A stretch of 64,000 nt of DNA from an uncultured Acidimicrobiales bacterium (GTDB taxonomy: Bacteria; Actinomycetota; Acidimicrobiia; Acidimicrobiales; SHLQ01), in NCBI GenBank assembly GCA_964517125.1, contig CAZFBD010000001.1, positions 236,338 to 300,337 of the forward strand. The letters run 5' to 3'. Positions 56,525 to 64,000 of the stretch are shown here, one piece after another. Every line of letters starts with the position of its first letter. Positions within the stretch are counted from its first letter, which is position 1. Under the pieces are notes generated by a model, which saw only the letters and a list, made by a program, of their open reading frames with translations, was not told where the DNA came from and did no database searches. The position numbers and the translations under genes were made by a program.

Positions 56525-57823
56525 TCAGCTCGGGTCGGGCTGAGGCGGACGAATTCGGACCTTCTCGATGCGGCGTCCGTCCACTTCTTCGACCGTGAGC
56601 TCGTGTCCTCCGTGCATGACGGTGTCGCCGAGCGATGGGACCGCTCCGGCATGAGCCAGGACGAGGCCGGCAATGGTCACGATGTCTTCGTGGTCGAACG
56701 ATTCGTCGTCGAGTTCCTGGCGAAGCTCGGTGAGTGTGGTGTCTCCGGGAACGGTCATGGAGCCGTCGATGTGGTGAATCACGCCGTCGGGGTGTTCGTC
56801 GTCCATGACCTCGTCGATCACGTCATCGAGCGAAACGAATCCGACCGTTGCACCGAATTCGTCGACGACGAGTGCGGCGTGTGCGGTTCCACGTTTGAAC
56901 TCGTCGAGCAGATCCTCGGCCGAGGTTGTTGCTGCGACCACGGGAAGCGGACGAACCAGGTCGCCCAACGAGGTGAAGGTGCCCAAACGGTCGGCCCGGA
57001 CGAAGTCCTTGATGTGGAGCATGCCAATGACATGGTCGAGGTCGCCGTCGACGACCGGATAGCGGCTACGTGGCGAAGCATCGACGAACTCCGACACGGT
57101 CTGGGCAGACGCGTTTCGGTCGATGGCGACGATGTTGTTCCGGGAGATCATGATCTCCTCGGCAGCTCGCGTGTCGAGCTCGAAGATGTTTCGAATCAGA
57201 TCTCGCTGAAGTCCACCAAGCTGGCCGCTCTCGGCCGACTCATCGGTCACGATGCTCAGTTCGTTGCTCGTGTGCAGCGAAAGACGCTTGTCGGGTTCGG
57301 GAATGCGCAGCGCACGCATGAGTGCGAAGGCGATCGCGTTGAGCACCGAAACCATTGGCTTGAACAGCGCACTGAACGTTCGCATCAGAGGATTCAGGCG
57401 GACACTCACCGATTCTGGCGCTTGCAGTGCCAGCGCCTTCGGAATCATCTCGCCAAAGACCACATGCATGTACGTGATAGCGCTGAGCGCCACGATGAAC
57501 CCGGCGGTGTGAGACGCACCCTCGGAGAAGCCGATGCTCTCCAGTGGCTCGTACAGCCAGTGGGCGACTGCTGGCTCCCCGTACATACCAAGGCCAATCG
57601 ACGCCAGGGTGATACCCAACTGCGCCACAGCGATGTAGCTGTCCTTGCCGGCGTGACGGTCGAAGACGGCAACAAGCCAACGTGCCGCTCCGTTGCCGCC
57701 ATCGGCGAGCGACTGCAGACGGCTCTTGCGGGCACCGACGAGTGCGAACTCAGCAGCCACGAACAGGCCGTTGAGCGCCACCAAGACGATGATGGCGAGG
57801 ATCGGGATGAGGTACTCGCTCAT
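56525..57823 (-). CDS. DUF21(CNNM)-CBS-CorC_HlyC family protein (hemolysin/TlyC-like)
   Basis: 432 aa with the N-terminal DUF21 motif NGLFVAAEFALVGARKSR, a CBS pair and a CorC C-terminal domain. Confidence 0.85.
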   Translation of the reverse strand: MSEYLIPILAIIVLVALNGLFVAAEFALVGARKSRLQSLADGGNGAARWLVAVFDRHAGKDSYIAVAQLGITLASIGLGMYGEPAVAHWLYEPLESIGFSEGASHTAGFIVALSAITYMHVVFGEMIPKALALQAPESVSVRLNPLMRTFSALFKPMVSVLNAIAFALMRALRIPEPDKRLSLHTSNELSIVTDESAESGQLGGLQRDLIRNIFELDTRAAEEIMISRNNIVAIDRNASAQTVSEFVDASPRSRYPVVDGDLDHVIGMLHIKDFVRADRLGTFTSLGDLVRPLPVVAATTSAEDLLDEFKRGTAHAALVVDEFGATVGFVSLDDVIDEVMDDEHPDGVIHHIDGSMTVPGDTTLTELRQELDDESFDHEDIVTIAGLVLAHAGAVPSLGDTVMHGGHELTVEEVDGRRIEKVRIRPPQPDPS

Positions 57824-59115
57824 GCGTCACCGCCTTCGTTGACGGAGAAGCTGATTCGCTCGATGGCATTGCCGTCGACCGTGTCGATCTGGACGAGGAG
57901 CCCGTCGGGGCCGAGCGAGACTTGTTCGCCTGCGCTCGGCATGCGGGACAGCGTGTGCCAGACGAGGCCACCGATCGTGTCGACATCTTCGGCTGGGAGC
58001 GACAGGTGATAGCGCTGATTCAGGTCGTCGAGCAGAACCTCGCCGGCGACCGACACGCGACCTGCGACCTCCACGATGGGGTCCGGGTCGACGTCGAATT
58101 CGTCCCGGACTTCGCCGAAGATCTCTTCGATTGCGTCCTCGAGGGTGACGAGCCCGGCCACGTCGCCGTATTCGTTGATCACGAACGCGCAGTGCTGCTC
58201 GCTGTCGTGCAACCGTCTCCACAGGTCGGGAACAGAGAGTGTTTCCGCCACCTCGAGCACTGGACGGGTCATGGCCGACACGGTGGTGTCCGGCGTGTTC
58301 CGAGCCGAGCGGTACAGGTCACGGAGATGCACGATTCCGGTGACGTCGTCCGTCGCTGTACCCCAGACGGGGAACCGGCTGTGCGGCGTCTCGACGACCT
58401 GGTCGAGTGCCGTGCCTACCGGAGCGGCAGCTTGCACGCCGACGAGCCGTCGCCGTGGCGTCATGATCTCGCGGACGAGGCGTTGTTCCACGTTCAGGAC
58501 ACCGGCGACCATGTCGCGTTCGGCTGCGTCGATGAGGCCTCCCTCGGCACTTTCGTCGAAGAGCGCTGCGAGTTCCTCGGGAGAATGGACGTGTGCGTGG
58601 CTGTGTTCGGTGTCGAGGCCGAGGGCACGCATGATGGAGAACGCCGACCCGTTGAAGATCTTCACGAGTGGGCGGAAGACCATCTGGCTGATCTGCATGG
58701 GTCGCAGCGTGGCGATCGCCAAACGCTCCGGGTAGCGAAGTGCAGCGGTCTTGGGAAGAAGCTCGCCAAGAACTACCTGGAGGGACGTGATGATGAGAAG
58801 GGTCACGAGAACGGCGACAGCGCGACCTGCAGAACCGAACAGTGGCTCGAGCAATGGGGTGAGGCGGGCCTGGCCGAACGCGCCAGCCACGAGACTGCTC
58901 AGGGTGATTCCCACCTGGCATGCCGCGACGTAGTTGTCGAGCGCCACGGGGTCCCCGACGATCTTGAACAGCGTTCCGGCTGCCCGGTTCCCCTCCTCGG
59001 CCGACGCCTGGATGCGGGATTTGCGACTTCCGACGGTCGCGAACTCGGCGGCAACGTAGAGGGCGTTGAGTGCAAGCATCACAACGATCGCCACGATGGT
59101 GATCAGCAAACTCAA
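57820..59115 (-). CDS. DUF21(CNNM)-CBS-CorC_HlyC family protein, tandem paralog
   Basis: 431 aa with the same architecture (NALYVAAEFATVGSRKSR). There is an ATGA overlap with the downstream paralog. Confidence 0.85.
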   Translation of the reverse strand: MSLLITIVAIVVMLALNALYVAAEFATVGSRKSRIQASAEEGNRAAGTLFKIVGDPVALDNYVAACQVGITLSSLVAGAFGQARLTPLLEPLFGSAGRAVAVLVTLLIITSLQVVLGELLPKTAALRYPERLAIATLRPMQISQMVFRPLVKIFNGSAFSIMRALGLDTEHSHAHVHSPEELAALFDESAEGGLIDAAERDMVAGVLNVEQRLVREIMTPRRRLVGVQAAAPVGTALDQVVETPHSRFPVWGTATDDVTGIVHLRDLYRSARNTPDTTVSAMTRPVLEVAETLSVPDLWRRLHDSEQHCAFVINEYGDVAGLVTLEDAIEEIFGEVRDEFDVDPDPIVEVAGRVSVAGEVLLDDLNQRYHLSLPAEDVDTIGGLVWHTLSRMPSAGEQVSLGPDGLLVQIDTVDGNAIERISFSVNEGGDA

Positions 59116-59224: not shown

Positions 59225-60979
59225 TCACGTGGTGCAGTCCTGACCGATGTTGCACACGAGGTCACTCGCCGGGGTGTGGTCGATGGCCTTGGTGGTCCAC
59301 CATCCGTGGGGCCCGTCGTTGCTGAGCGCGTAGGCGTTGGTTCGGTTCGGGTCGCCGGCCACCGCGATCATGAACCGCTCGGGTTTGGTCACGATGGGGA
59401 CAGGACGAGCGGGGTCATCCGACGCAGCGAAGACGTCTGGGAGCAGATTCTCGTTCACCAGCTCGTGCAGCGTTCGCCGGCCGGCGGTGAGGTTGCTCCA
59501 CTCCCCGATCATGGCTTCGAACGTGCTTGCCGGTATTCGAGCGTGTTCGAACAGCCCACCCTGCACGTCGTGTTTGGACCAGCCTGCGTTCGCGAAGATG
59601 CGGGCAAGAACCGGGGACAGCACGAGCAATGGTTGGAACTGGTCGTGGCCCAGTCCGTGGACGTGGGTGAGGTCCCACGCCGCGGTCCGGGCCAGGCCAT
59701 TGCCGAGGTAGGGCAGGATCTCTTCTGGAGCGGAGCCGAAGACGCTGCCGATGATCGTGCCGCTGTTCATGCGAGCCATGGTCACGGTGTCATCGTGCGC
59801 GCTGAAGCCGAAGCTGGCCGACAGCGGTTCCCAGCCGATCTCCTCGAGGCACGCCATGTCTTCAGCCAGCACCACGCGAGTGCTGTTTCCGAAGGTCGCC
59901 TTGTCATGCTCCTCAGCGGTGAACCCGAACACGTTGCGGAGGTACAGCCGGAGCCAGCGCCCGACGCACGTGTTCGCGTGGGCTCCTTCGCGCAGCGCTC
60001 CGGGTCCGGAGTTGAAGCCGAGTGCGTCTACGTTCGGGCCATCGACAATGACCAGTGCATCTGCACCCGTTGTATTGCCGGAGTGTTCGGCGCCATAGTC
60101 CGGGTCGGCGAGCACCTCACACATACCGAGCAACACCGGGAGGTGTTCCGGGCGGCAGCCTGCCATGACGGCGTTGACGGCAACCGACCAGACCGTGAGA
60201 TCGCGCCCGCTCGACGACGCGACCCCAAGGATCTTCCACGGGTCGTGGCCCGATTCGGCAAGGAACGCCTCGACCCGATCCCGGGTTGGCGGCACGATGG
60301 GACTGCCGTCGGTCCAGCCGTTCGCCAGGAACACCTCGTGAATGTGATCGATCGCGCCGGAGGCGACGACGTCGAGGGCCGTGGGTTCGTCGCTCCCCTC
60401 TCCCTCATGTTCTGCCTCCACCGTGAGCCCATCGATGATCTGCTGCACGGTCGACTCGATGAAGTTCTGCACCATCACCTCGTACGGTTGCGCGTCGACG
60501 TGACCCACGGTGACGGCCAACGGGAGGCCATCGTGGCCATGTCCGCGCGCAGTTGCATTCGCCTGGCCAGCGAAACCCTCGCACACGATGGAGACCGAAG
60601 GGATTCCCGCCGACTCCGCTGCCATGGCTGCCCGCATCACGGCGGGCGTACAGCTGCCTCAACAACCCATCCCGGACACGACGGCATCGACCCCGCGACT
60701 CCGCAGGTCGTCGGGAAGGCGACCCACCCGCTCCTTCTCGTCAGAACCGTGCAGGTTCCCGAACACCGTGTGATCCACAATCTCGAGATCCGCTGACCGC
60801 GCCTTCAGCTCTCGTTCGAGCACGGGGAACAGTTCGTCGCCGCGAAACAGGTAGTCCCAGAGGAACGCAACTCGCTTGCCGTCAAGCGTGCGCAGCCGCG
60901 CAGCGGTTCGCCGTTGTTGGATCCCTCGCGGTGCGCTCGGCCAGACCACCTCGTACATCGGTTCCATATACGACATCAT
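59225..60979 (-). CDS. UGSC-motif selenoprotein module fused to a ~400 aa domain of unknown function, with TGA-Sec at 60659-60661
   Basis: Track ORFs 60659-60979 and 59225-60640 are in frame and separated by one TGA. The joined reading is ...RSRGVDAVVSGMGC-TGA-GSCTPAVMRAAMAAESAGIPSVSIV..., which gives a C-U-G-S-C motif in a context resembling the GrdB/PrdB Sec loop. After an acidic linker (EAEHEGEGSDEP), a large domain follows (GWTDGSPIVPPTRDRVEAFL...) that I cannot assign. The product is 584 aa. Confidence 0.8.
60630..60647 (-). other. candidate SECIS hairpin of the UGSC gene
   Basis: On the mRNA: UGA-N11-GCCCGC-CGUGAU-GCGGGC, a perfect 6 bp stem. Confidence 0.5.
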
Positions 60980-60998: not shown

Positions 60999-63360
60999 CT
61001 AGCGGTCCGCGGCCAGCTCGAGGTTCAGTCCCTCGACCACCGCGATCAAGTCACCGGTCTCGACGAAGTCGGTTGCCAGAATCGTGGGCAGACGACCGCG
61101 CTCAGCTTCGCACTCTCGGACCCGTTCCAGCAGAGCGTCACGGCTGTTGATGGAGATGGCGGCTTCGCGCACGGGGATGCCGGTGGTGATCCAGTGGTTG
61201 ATCAAGAAGAGCGGGTTCGAGTCGACACCACGATTGGGGGCGCAGGAGAAGTCGCTGGGCACCGCAAACGTGTATGGAGTCTCGGTGAATGCTGCATCGA
61301 AGCCATTCTGGAACCAGGTTCCCGGCTCGCCCTGATTCTCGCCGTAGACCAGGACGCGCTGGTCCAAGTCCACCAGTTCGCCCAGTGTGGGAAACGGCGT
61401 TCCGGGTTGATGGACAAACGCCCGATCCAGAAGACCACTATCACTGAAGGCCGCCTCGAGATCCTCGGTGGAGATCTCGTCCTGCACAATGACAAGTAAC
61501 GCCTCATTTGGATTCTCATCGAGCCAGATGTTGATGTCCGAGAGCCCCGAGGTCAGGTCGGTGGCACCGAGTGCACAAAACCCGTGACAGAGCCAGGTCC
61601 CGGCACGAGGCTGATCGTCTCCAAGCGCCGCCTCGACCGTGGCTGCAGCGTCGTCAGCGGGCTTCGTCACCGTCGAGGCGCCCTTCGGCATGCCAATACA
61701 GGGCGTCGATCAGTAACGCCCGGATGCCGTGGTCAAGCTGGGTGATCATGTCTCCGTCCTGCATGGCCAACTGCCAACCGAGCGCATTCGACGACATCGC
61801 GTTGTGGGATCCGGCAAAGACGACCTCGTCGATGGTCCGACCACAGAGTTCCACGTGTCCGTTACATCCCTGATCAGCGGTCTGAGCAGCGGCGGAGTTC
61901 GTGGTGCTCCACACACCTGCACTCGCTGCGAGGGCCACCACAGCCGTTGCAACGAGCCATCGACGTTGGCTGCCTTCGGCCGCGTGCTCCCCCGCACTCT
62001 CGACAACCGTCGAAGAACTCCGGAAGGTGGAACGTGCGGTACGAGCGTCGAGCAATGCCTGCAACAACGACCCAACCGTTGCGAAGACCAACGTCGTCGC
62101 AAGCGACCAACCGGGCCAGAGCAGGAACGCGACGATCGTGAGAATCCCGACGTTCACCCGAATGCGGGATTCTGCAGCAACTGGCTCCGGTTGCTCGTCG
62201 ATTGAGAACCTCGAGCGAAACGCTGCGGCGCCTGCGCTGGTTGCGGTCACGCCCCAGATGATCCGCTGCGCGACAGCGACGATGACGAGAAGCGTCACGA
62301 GCACGCGCCACGTGGGCGTCGACCAGACCACGAGGATGATCACCAGCGAGAGCCAGACGAGCAGGCGCGCGGCGGCAGGATTTGCACGAATGGAATCGGC
62401 GATTCGGCCAACGATCTCGCCATCGTGATTCCAGAGGCTCCGTGGGAGCGAACGCAACACCTGGGCAGCCGGATGGTTGCCCAGAAGTACTCCCACGACT
62501 GCAAGGATCAGGCCGTTGACGATGAGCCCCCGTTGGAACTGGGCGTAGTCGGCAGACACGACTTCGGCCACGGCGAGCCCAACGTTCGCTCGCTGTTCGG
62601 AGAAGGCCCCGAGCAGGGCAAAGAGAATGGTCGAAACCACGAGGACGGAGATGAGGGCGGAGCCGGACAGAAAAAGTCCGGCGCGGACGAGTGCAATTCT
62701 GCGGTTCGGAGCCATGATTGCGGCTCCAATCAGGCAACCCAGCGCAAGCAGTGCCAGAAGTCCGCCAGCGGCTGGCACCCCCTGTGTGACCAGGAGAAGC
62801 GAACTGTTCTCGCCGTCCTCCTCGGCGAGAGTGAAGCGTCCGACGTCGGAGCCTGTCATGACCTTGGCCACGCCGGCACCAAGAGCAGGACCGCCGAGAT
62901 CGCGGCTGGTACGAACCAGAACCGCGCCCATGTCGATCGTGATCTCCGACTCGTCGGCGGTGAACTGTCTGTGCACTTCCCGAAGTGCGGACTGGCGTGC
63001 GTCCACAGCCACCTCGGTGTCGAGCAGTCGGAATGCAGCGTCGGTGAGCTGCGTCGTCGCCAGCCGGGTCGCTGGGACCACAAAGGTCCGAACCTGAGGC
63101 GGAAGGTCGGCTGTCAGCGTCTCGTCGGTCGTGATCACCTCGAGCATGGTTGCGGTCGCAACTTCGGCGACGCCCTGACGAGCCTCAGGGTGCGCAATTG
63201 CCTTGTCCGCGACCGAGACGAACGCATCTTCCTCGGTGATCACGTTGGAGATGTACAACAGCGGACCGGCCAACAGCACGAGCACTGCCAGCAGAACAAG
63301 CAGGATGGTTGAGACAGCCGGGCCGTAGCGAGAACGAAGTGACGCCTTCGCTTCGGTCAT
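60999..63360 (-). pseudogene. membrane-anchored PLC-like phosphodiesterase (PI-PLC X-domain family), interrupted by a frameshift near 61654-61711
   Basis: ORF 61654-63360 encodes about 480 aa of multi-transmembrane sequence, then an internal signal-like segment and CNGHVELCGRTIDEVVFAGSHNAMS...QLDHGIRALLIDALYWH. ORF 60999-61691, in another frame and overlapping by 38 nt, continues with WLCHGFCALGATDL...WLDENPNEALLVIVQDE. Together these are the two halves of one PLC-like X domain. The downstream frame is closed by a TGA at about 61711, so the shift must lie between about 61711 and 61654. Confidence 0.6.
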
Positions 63361-63405: not shown

Positions 63406-64000
63406 TCAAACAGTGCCCTCATCGAGCTGTATCAGCACCTGGACCGCCCGCTCGCGCACGTCGTCCAGGTCCTTCAACCGACGCATCCCGGCCAGCTGTT
63501 GGCTCATGCGATGGTTCGAGCTGAATGCCTCCTCGTTGCGGGCCAGGAAGTCCCAGTAGAGCGTCGTGTACGGGCATGCGTCGTCGCCGACGCGCTTCTT
63601 GGGGTTGTACCGACAGCCCTTGCAGGAGTCGCTCATCTTGTTGATGTACGCTCCACCGCTCGCATAGGGCTTGGTTGCCATCTGTCCCCCGTCGGCGTGA
63701 AGCGCCATGCCGATGACGTTGGGGAGCATGACCCACTCGGCTCCGTCCACGAAGCTCGCCCACATCCAGTCGGTCATCGCCTGCGGGTCGACGCCGGCGG
63801 TCAGCGCGAGGTTCCCGAACACCATGAGTCGCTCGATGTGATGGGTGTAGCCGTGGTCATGCAGGTGCGACATCGCCGACGAGACGCACGCCATGTCTGT
63901 CGTTGCTTCGCCGGTGAATGCAGGAGGAACCGGTCGTGTCGCCCCAAGTGCGTTTCGGTCTCGGTAGCCGTCAGGCATCCAGAGCCAGTAGACGCCCCAC
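63406..64000 (-). CDS. FeS-BCP / PhrB-type cryptochrome-photolyase family protein ((6-4) photolyase-like), C-terminal part (5' end off-window)
   Basis: The frame stays open to the window edge (..WGVYWLWMPDGY..). It has HHIERLMV and the Cys pattern C-x2-C-x12-C (CKGCRYNPKKRVGDDAC), followed by YTTLYWDF. That spacing matches three of the four [4Fe-4S] ligands of PhrB-type enzymes. Confidence 0.75.
   Translation of the reverse strand, partial: WGVYWLWMPDGYRDRNALGATRPVPPAFTGEATTDMACVSSAMSHLHDHGYTHHIERLMVFGNLALTAGVDPQAMTDWMWASFVDGAEWVMLPNVIGMALHADGGQMATKPYASGGAYINKMSDSCKGCRYNPKKRVGDDACPYTTLYWDFLARNEEAFSSNHRMSQQLAGMRRLKDLDDVRERAVQVLIQLDEGTV

Follow-up and report, generated by a model that had tools for sequence, protein, structure and literature searches.

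A gene on the minus strand (60979..59225) of a 64,000-nucleotide (nt) stretch of DNA from an uncultured member of the Acidimicrobiales (contig CAZFBD010000001.1, positions 236,338 to 300,337; the whole of this stretch is called the window in the following) almost certainly encodes a single fusion protein which contains selenocysteine (Sec, U). As far as can be told from comparison with related genes, its one in-frame UGA is shown to be passed by insertion of selenocysteine, directed by a hairpin downstream of the codon, the selenocysteine insertion sequence (SECIS). The N-terminal part belongs to the UGSC selenoproteins; the C-terminal part (the C-domain) appears to be a compact, conserved and enzyme-like domain outside the known families.

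Translated through its only in-frame TGA (60661..60659), the gene forms a continuous frame of 584 codons: 106 residues ending in ...DAVVSGMGC precede this codon, and 477 further codons, beginning with GSCTPAVMRAAMAAESAGIPSVSIV..., follow it. The continuation of the frame past the TGA, as described in the initial annotation of this DNA, was confirmed in this way. The acidic linker of that annotation, EAEHEGEGSDEP, is likewise present, as are its motifs GWTDGSPIVPPTRDRVEAFL and VMAGCRPEHLPVLL. In the list of open reading frames (ORFs) the gene is cut in two, namely a 106-amino acid (aa) ORF (60659..60979) and a 471-aa ORF, which starts from a GTG at 60640. The third ATG, at 60967, is a likelier start than 60979, since the N-termini of homologues read MEP.Y[ED]VVWP; the product would then have 580 aa. 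Further in-frame TGA codons with coding-like flanks were sought throughout the window, and no convincing candidate emerged.

Evidence for a selenocysteine codon

Scanning of one genome per species gave a set of 80 related loci, all from metagenome-assembled genomes of the Acidimicrobiales/Acidimicrobiia. A TGA was present at the same codon, with the conserved flanks ...VDAVVSGMGC before and GSCTPAV... after it, in 77/77 loci which had enough upstream DNA. In distant metagenomic homologues (28–70% identity) the codon was TGA in 56 and TGC or TGT in 14 of 70 sequences, and the upstream frame was open over at least 100 codons in 69 of the 70, where enough sequence was present. Over the 20 codons 5' of the TGA, the amino acids are conserved among 74 distinct sequences, with two to six synonymous codons being used per site; the retention of amino acids despite synonymous variation indicates that this frame is under selection at the protein level.

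Uninterrupted forms with cysteine (Cys), of 563–588 aa, were found by an exhaustive representative search (P0124, P0142, P0148, P0164); they contain C-G-[SA]-C in place of U-G-S-C, and their two-domain layout is unchanged. The first position of the motif was either Sec or Cys in all of 52 diverse homologues. Cys110, which follows the selenocysteine in the UxxC arrangement (Table 1), is the probable partner for resolving a selenium-sulfur bond.

In public collections, the entries for Sec-form orthologues (P0001–P0120) are nearly all truncations of 406–496 aa which begin after the UGA, and many of them match the Pfam model of the UGSC family, PF24696, only partially. This is a systematic misannotation. 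The complete 6.3-Mb chromosome OZ244139.1 of a member of the Acidimicrobiales harbors two distant copies of the fused gene (L002, L003), which are identical around the UGA and the SECIS.

The SECIS hairpin

A spacer of 11 nt (60648..60658) separates the UGA from the hairpin, whose core is given in Table 1. Codons +4 to +9 (ACG CCC GCC GTG NTG CGG) are each represented by one synonymous codon in 73–74 of the 74 distinct sequences; three to six synonymous codons are used at the four-fold degenerate codons flanking the hairpin, and two to six at the flanking codons overall. Synonymous sites which are frozen within the hairpin point to selection acting on the RNA and not on the protein, and this marks the element as a SECIS. 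The lone substitution in the stem among the relatives, CCC to CCT in one locus (L038), preserves a G-U pair. Two distant Sec homologues possess hairpins as well: in L081 the same stem and the loop (CGUGUU) are retained at the same position, although both bases of one pair and a single base of a second pair have been exchanged, and in L084 a different stem of 7 bp with a similar CGUGA loop is located further downstream. In the minimal SECIS of Escherichia coli fdhF, an upper stem-loop of about 17 nt, whose loop contains G/U, is placed at a distance of 11 nt from the UGA; the 11-nt spacing of the hairpin in the window presumably agrees with that arrangement.

Table 1. Features of the selenoprotein gene and its product (positions in the window; residue numbers counted from the ATG at 60979)
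Feature	Position	Strand	Remarks
Selenoprotein coding sequence, complete	59225..60979	-	584 codons including one UGA read as Sec; stop codon at 59227..59225
UGSC domain, residues 11-186	60422..60949	-	Pfam PF24696, 96.1 bits against a cutoff of 25, E 3.4e-27
UGA read as Sec (U107), motif G-M-G-C-U-G-S-C	60659..60661	-	TGA in 74/74 distinct related sequences
Cys110, C of UxxC	60650..60652	-	Cys in 47/52 diverse fused homologues, Ser in 5/52
SECIS core hairpin GCCCGC-CGUGAU-GCGGGC, 18 nt	60630..60647	-	6-bp stem, 6-nt loop with GU
Acidic linker, variable, about residues 187-199	60383..60421	-	poorly conserved, length varies in alignments; dip of pLDDT (AlphaFold)
C-terminal domain, about 385 aa (about residues 200-584)	59228..60382	-	motifs W-[TS]-D-G-x-P-[IV]-x-P-P-T and A-V-N-x-V-M-A-G-C-x-P
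Cys275, MAGC motif	60155..60157	-	sole invariant cysteine of the C-terminal domain
pLDDT, predicted local distance difference test.

The N-terminal UGSC domain

With selenocysteine written as cysteine, PF24696 matched the protein as one domain across the TGA, covering profile positions 2–171 of 172. At 96 bits against a cutoff of 25, this bears out the earlier assignment of the N-terminal part to UGSC. The NCBIfam equivalog NF041046, searched with the same replacement, gave 51.9 bits, which is under its cutoff of 125 bits; the best E value for this model among 67 relatives was 2.4e-32. A score below the equivalog cutoff suggests that the protein belongs to a divergent fused subfamily and is not an equivalog of the stand-alone UGSC protein.

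The initial annotation had also noted a resemblance to the Sec loop of GrdB and PrdB. Besides UGSC, the only recurrent NCBIfam matches were indeed to PrdB, GrdB, GrdF and GrdH, in 4–7 of the 67 members each, with a best E value of 4.6e-4. All of them are below threshold: the window protein itself reached E 0.014 and 14.8 bits with TIGR04483, whose cutoff is 300, and no match to PF07355 was obtained. The resemblance is therefore genuine, if weak, and does not extend to membership in these families; it supports a remote homology between the UGSC domain and the Sec loop of the GrdB/PrdB selenoproteins.

P0124 is the closest full-length Cys homologue. In its AlphaFold model (pLDDT 93, predicted TM-score (pTM) 0.93) the motif is placed between a strand (99–105) and a helix (110–123) of an alternating beta/alpha domain. 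In a Foldseek search with the model, the confident matches which covered the N-terminal domain were flavodoxin-like/Rossmann-like proteins (azoreductase, NQO1/2, REC domains) and not thioredoxins, with probabilities of 0.9–0.99, target-normalised TM-scores of about 0.4 and E values which were all above 1e-3. For the UGSC domain an alpha/beta structure of flavodoxin-like topology is thus predicted from the model, with Sec at the end of a strand and the start of a helix. A thioredoxin fold had been suggested previously for UGSC (PMC2398784).

The C-terminal domain

Following the acidic linker is a domain which the initial annotation had described as not assignable, and this description holds: profile, PDB sequence and fold searches were run, and none gave a convincing match. 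No Pfam or NCBIfam model matched it when the window protein and 66–67 relatives were scanned singly. Searches of PDB sequences with the single sequence and with two profiles gave nothing meaningful; a marginal match to the Clp/Hsp104 N-domain (E 0.012) extended over a helical segment, and matches to xylanases were noise. An AlphaFold model of the sequence which follows the UGA in the window was nevertheless confident (pLDDT 90.2, pTM 0.91). The best Foldseek match of the domain in the PDB had an E value of 1e-3 and a probability of 0.57–0.69, at a TM-score of 0.17–0.21 and a root-mean-square deviation of 17–19 Å. The folds of class I fumarate hydratase, cyanuric acid hydrolase, CyuA and PrpD were leads only and were rejected as assignments. 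The three-cysteine cluster-binding motif of class I (iron-sulfur) fumarase is absent from the domain, which has one conserved cysteine only.

The family is a large one. An exhaustive search at E<1e-3 gave 3716 clusters at 50% identity, a word-indexed search gave more than 3883 close clusters, and the source-given names of all clusters that were looked up are "hypothetical protein". Conserved positions, in the numbering of the window protein, are W222, D224, G225, P227, P230, P231, T232, N269, M272 and A273, and further G274, C275, P277, P281, N336, R341, N349, D359, E373 and W383. Of the diverse fused homologues for which there were data, 45/45 had cysteine at C275; so did 16/16 Cys-form proteins, among them members whose UGSC redox motif is lost, and the residue is present in both halves of tandem-duplicated proteins. 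It is a candidate for the catalytic residue, and the conserved polar residues D224, N336, R341, N349 and E373 would be situated around it according to the alignments and the model.

Partnership of the two domains

The fusion was found across a range of 28–80% identity. It had been argued in the initial annotation that the occurrence of the two parts as separate genes in other genomes would indicate a joint function, and such pairs do exist: in three metagenomic loci (L081, L084, L085) a UGSC gene is followed by a separate, adjacent gene for the C-domain. In L081 (400-2132) the C-domain gene is in a different frame, the break being in the linker; in L084 (220-1880) the genes overlap by 4 nt; in L085 (3-1293) a spacer of 28 nt is between them, and only the C-terminal end of the UGSC gene is on the contig. 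The split versions break at the position of the linker, and the split UGSC genes of L081 and L084 have their own in-frame TGA with a downstream hairpin. Adjacent pairs of this kind suggest that the two parts work together. A fixed packing of the two domains is predicted by the full-length model (pTM 0.93).

Judging from the other architectures which were found, partnership with UGSC is not obligatory for the C-domain. It occurs without UGSC in the tandem-duplicated proteins P0166 and P0197 (L086:7213-9366) of about 715–740 aa, which are encoded beside a gene for an SBP_bac_5 solute-binding protein. Some fused proteins are devoid of the redox residues, such as P0143 (GGGASGAA) and P0232 (GWSGVYT), and UxxS is present instead of UxxC in L135, L136 and L161; C275 is kept in all of these. 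Since this residue is invariant where Sec or Cys has been lost, in UxxS variants and in tandem proteins without UGSC, the cysteine of the C-domain would appear to be the core of the system and the Sec loop an accessory.

Altogether, loss of the motif or a U/C-x-x-S form was noted among P0143, P0232, P0240, L134–L136, L161 and L169, all of which keep the cysteine of the C-domain. Larger proteins of 845–1254 aa were also encountered (P0203, P0247, P0175), in which UGSC is combined with two matched stretches of the C-terminal domain, in one case together with Cu_amine_oxidN1; the second copy is possibly located N-terminally to UGSC.

Genomic context

The upstream neighbours in the window are ORFs without assigned function which resemble a frameshifted gene. 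They are two overlapping ORFs directly upstream on the same strand (60999..61691 and 61654..63360, both minus), which seem to be the pieces of one gene. Of these, the 568-aa ORF ends with ...IRALLIDALYWHAEGRLDGDEAR before its stop codon, and the 230-aa ORF carries on in another frame (...TWLCHGFCALGATDL...). By eye, the pair appears to be membrane-anchored and to contain a PLC-X-like domain; neither ORF had a Pfam match, and the break may be an assembly error or a real frameshift. At the edge of the window, and probably continuing past it, is a 190-aa ORF (63406..63978, minus) with several conserved-looking cysteines; a Pfam search gave no match to it at E<=1e-3, and we take it to resemble the C-terminus of cryptochrome/photolyase-family proteins that contain an iron-sulfur cluster. 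Directly downstream of the selenoprotein gene are tandem paralogues of CNNM/CBS-pair/CorC_HlyC transporters (56525..57823 and 57820..59115, both minus), which overlap by 4 nt, and beyond these are an NDH-2 dehydrogenase and an aspartate dehydrogenase.

Among related loci, a divergent Lrp/AsnC regulator is encoded directly upstream of the gene in 13 (Pfam census) or 23 (BLAST clustering) of about 77 Acidimicrobiales loci. An example is L001:4895-5350 (minus); the regulator is absent from the window. A gene for a thioredoxin-reductase-like flavoprotein begins 8 nt downstream of the Cys-form gene P0142, genes for an SNF-type Na+ symporter and an acyl-CoA ligase are located on either side of the Cys form P0124, and a branched-chain amino-acid ATP-binding cassette transporter is in the vicinity of P0162. 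The neighbours of diverse homologues (95 ORFs) include MmgE/PrpD, TctC and DAO genes and one selA. A GrdE/PrdA pyruvoyl proprotein or a grd/prd cluster was found neither among 139 + 95 neighbouring ORFs nor in the window. These contexts point loosely to the metabolism of small molecules (amino acids or organic acids) and to a supply of thiol reductase; no pathway was identified.

Possible function and alternative explanations

The best explanation, to which we would give somewhat better than even chances, is that the gene encodes a SECIS-recoded two-domain selenoenzyme of about 580 aa, in which C275 carries out the catalysis and the pair U107/C110 serves as a relay. In such an enzyme the UGSC domain would present the selenol/thiol pair U107-x-x-C110 at the start of a helix, and C275 would act chemically on a small substrate, probably one resembling an amino acid or an organic acid. 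The U107/C110 pair would be a tethered relay: once C275 has been oxidised or adducted, the pair would reduce or resolve it (or would act in this way on the substrate), turn into a selenenylsulfide in the process and then be reduced again by a system of the thioredoxin reductase type. The redox relay for a Cys275-based catalytic domain, taken by itself, is a tentative proposal, with chances a little short of even. It is preferred because C275 is kept where the Sec loop has been lost, and the thioredoxin-reductase-like neighbour of one Cys form would also fit. The class of substrate is suggested by the Lrp/AsnC, SNF transporter, acyl-CoA ligase, MmgE/PrpD, TctC and DAO neighbours.

Several results weigh against this explanation. 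No SECIS or other RNA family was matched by Rfam in the window, and the hairpin is no more stable than shuffled sequence in its GC-rich context (z = 0.28); since the folding energy is not distinctive, the case for the SECIS stands on conservation. A tRNA-Sec was not found by ARAGORN in the 64-kb window; selA, selB and selD were not searched for. None of the neighbours in the window recurs beside the gene in the 80 related loci, the window is without an informative neighbour, and neighbourhoods are mostly unconserved in general, with only the Lrp/AsnC regulators recurring in the Pfam census (139 + 95 neighbouring ORFs). The thioredoxin-reductase-like neighbour is confined to one locus family, and Pyr_redox_2 was present in 2/95 neighbours.

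If the TGA were a true stop, there would be two products. The C-terminal part would have a start of its own, either the GTG at 60640 or the ATG at 60637, and the 106-aa ORF would be non-coding or would encode a small protein. Both of these codons do occur after the TGA, and public gene callers annotate post-TGA proteins of 431–496 aa. This is very improbable nonetheless, since a single Pfam domain extends across the TGA, the frame preceding it is conserved as protein in every locus and the homologues with a Cys codon are uninterrupted; moreover, a product from either codon would start partway through the UGSC fold, and the ATG is replaced by TTG or CTG in 28% of relatives. An independent start at the GTG had been named in the initial annotation as a finding that would speak against the fusion; this scenario fails, because the triplet is the conserved GUG in the invariant loop of the SECIS. 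Still less credible, to the point of being hardly conceivable, is a pseudogene, or a TGA arising by sequencing error in a Cys-form (TGC) gene. TGA is only one base away from TGC or TGT, but it was found in 74/74 close relatives, which come from independent assemblies. Of the distant relatives 56/70 have it too; the gene is free of further stops and of frameshifts, and the SECIS is conserved. Independent translation, pseudogene and sequencing error can be regarded as effectively excluded.

The main rival to the relay would be a single-chain enzyme of the GrdB/PrdB type. The C-domain would bind and activate an amine or osmolyte, the role of PrdA/GrdE; Sec107 would be the nucleophile in a reductive cleavage of a C-N or C-X bond, and C110 would resolve the selenoether or selenenylsulfide in the last step. 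This possibility is favoured by the remote matches of the UGSC domain, of which those to PrdB, GrdB, GrdF and GrdH alone are recurrent, and by the UxxC motif, which is shared with PrdB (Table 2 in PMC2398784); the Lrp/AsnC, SNF transporter and acyl-CoA ligase neighbours would suit a catabolism of amino acids or osmolytes. We consider it unlikely, in view of a score of 14.8 bits against 300, far under the family cutoffs, and the lack of a PrdA/GrdE-like partner or a Gly_reductase domain in the protein or among its neighbours. In addition, some fused homologues are without Sec or Cys and yet have C275, and in these Sec-less members Sec cannot be the essential nucleophile, which rules it out as such for the family as a whole. 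The hosts are mostly aerobic marine and soil Actinomycetota and not Stickland fermenters, which also counts against an enzyme of this type.

Relation to known proteins

A "UGSC-containing protein" has been listed as a selenoprotein whose function is not known since the mid-2000s (PMC1976440). UGSC was a major family in the Global Ocean Sampling data, with 255 Sec versus 21 Cys sequences, and is among the most abundant prokaryotic selenoproteins of ocean and freshwater metagenomes (PMC2398784). According to a review of 2026, such selenoproteins, including UGSC, are nearly all known from bioinformatics alone, their functions being largely uncharacterised (PMC13188914); UGSC was also still without a characterised function in a review of 2022. 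Zhang and Gladyshev (2008; PLoS Genet 4:e1000095, Fig. S1A; PMC2398784) described a fusion of UGSC with a domain designated "Unknown_1", which has a conserved cysteine and also stands alone in a few aquatic organisms. Unknown_1 is probably the C-terminal domain reported here. Both fusions consist of UGSC and a conserved, cysteine-bearing domain that also occurs alone; the data of 2008 were single reads, and the description given there accordingly did not extend to the complete domain with its invariant residues, nor to split pairs or Sec-less variants.

With the UGSC family as represented by PF24696 and NF041046, the protein shares the U-G-S-C motif, the in-frame UGA with a SECIS and the rare Cys homologues. 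The canonical model is a stand-alone protein of about 150–170 aa, whereas the domain makes up here the N-terminal third of a 580-aa protein. NCBI names fused orthologues with 72–80% identity "UGSC family (seleno)protein". Likeness to GrdB, GrdF, GrdH and PrdB (TIGR01917, TIGR04483, PF07355) consists in the UxxC following a beta-strand and in weak profile matches around the Sec loop; the window protein differs from them in scores far below the cutoffs, in the lack of a GrdE/PrdA partner and of a grd/prd operon, and in its fusion to an unrelated domain.

Fusions of the Prx-Grx and MsrA/B-Trx types are redox enzymes with a built-in relay domain. The logic proposed for the window protein would be analogous, a catalytic cysteine domain being joined to a recycling dithiol domain, here with a selenol/thiol pair. 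In contrast to these fusions, its relay domain is predicted to be flavodoxin-like and not of the thioredoxin fold, and its catalytic domain belongs to no known family.

Conclusions

The novelty of these results is modest, since they provide a correct identification within a known orphan family and not a new kind of system. What is added is the SECIS, an invariant cysteine (C275), variants which are split or lack Sec, a model which is confident and yet has no fold relative, and the association with Lrp/AsnC regulators. Standard gene calling splits the gene at the UGA and so truncates nearly all of its Sec forms in public databases. In the Acidimicrobiales, the usual form of UGSC is a two-domain enzyme of 580 aa. 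The partner domain represents a large family without a Pfam model or a structural relative, which occurs alone, in tandem, or as a gene adjacent to UGSC; there is a case for building a family model, and U107, C110 and C275 are concrete targets for biochemistry. A further idea, which we regard as distinctly improbable, is that UGSC and its partner form a selenium-dependent reductase which is widespread among aerobic bacteria of the sea and of soils and has so far gone unrecognised. It would be a single-chain functional analogue of the clostridial glycine, betaine and proline reductases, in which the C-domain would bind or activate an amino acid or osmolyte through C275 and Sec107 would perform the reduction. 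If true, this would provide a biochemical role for one of the most abundant orphan selenoprotein families of the ocean.

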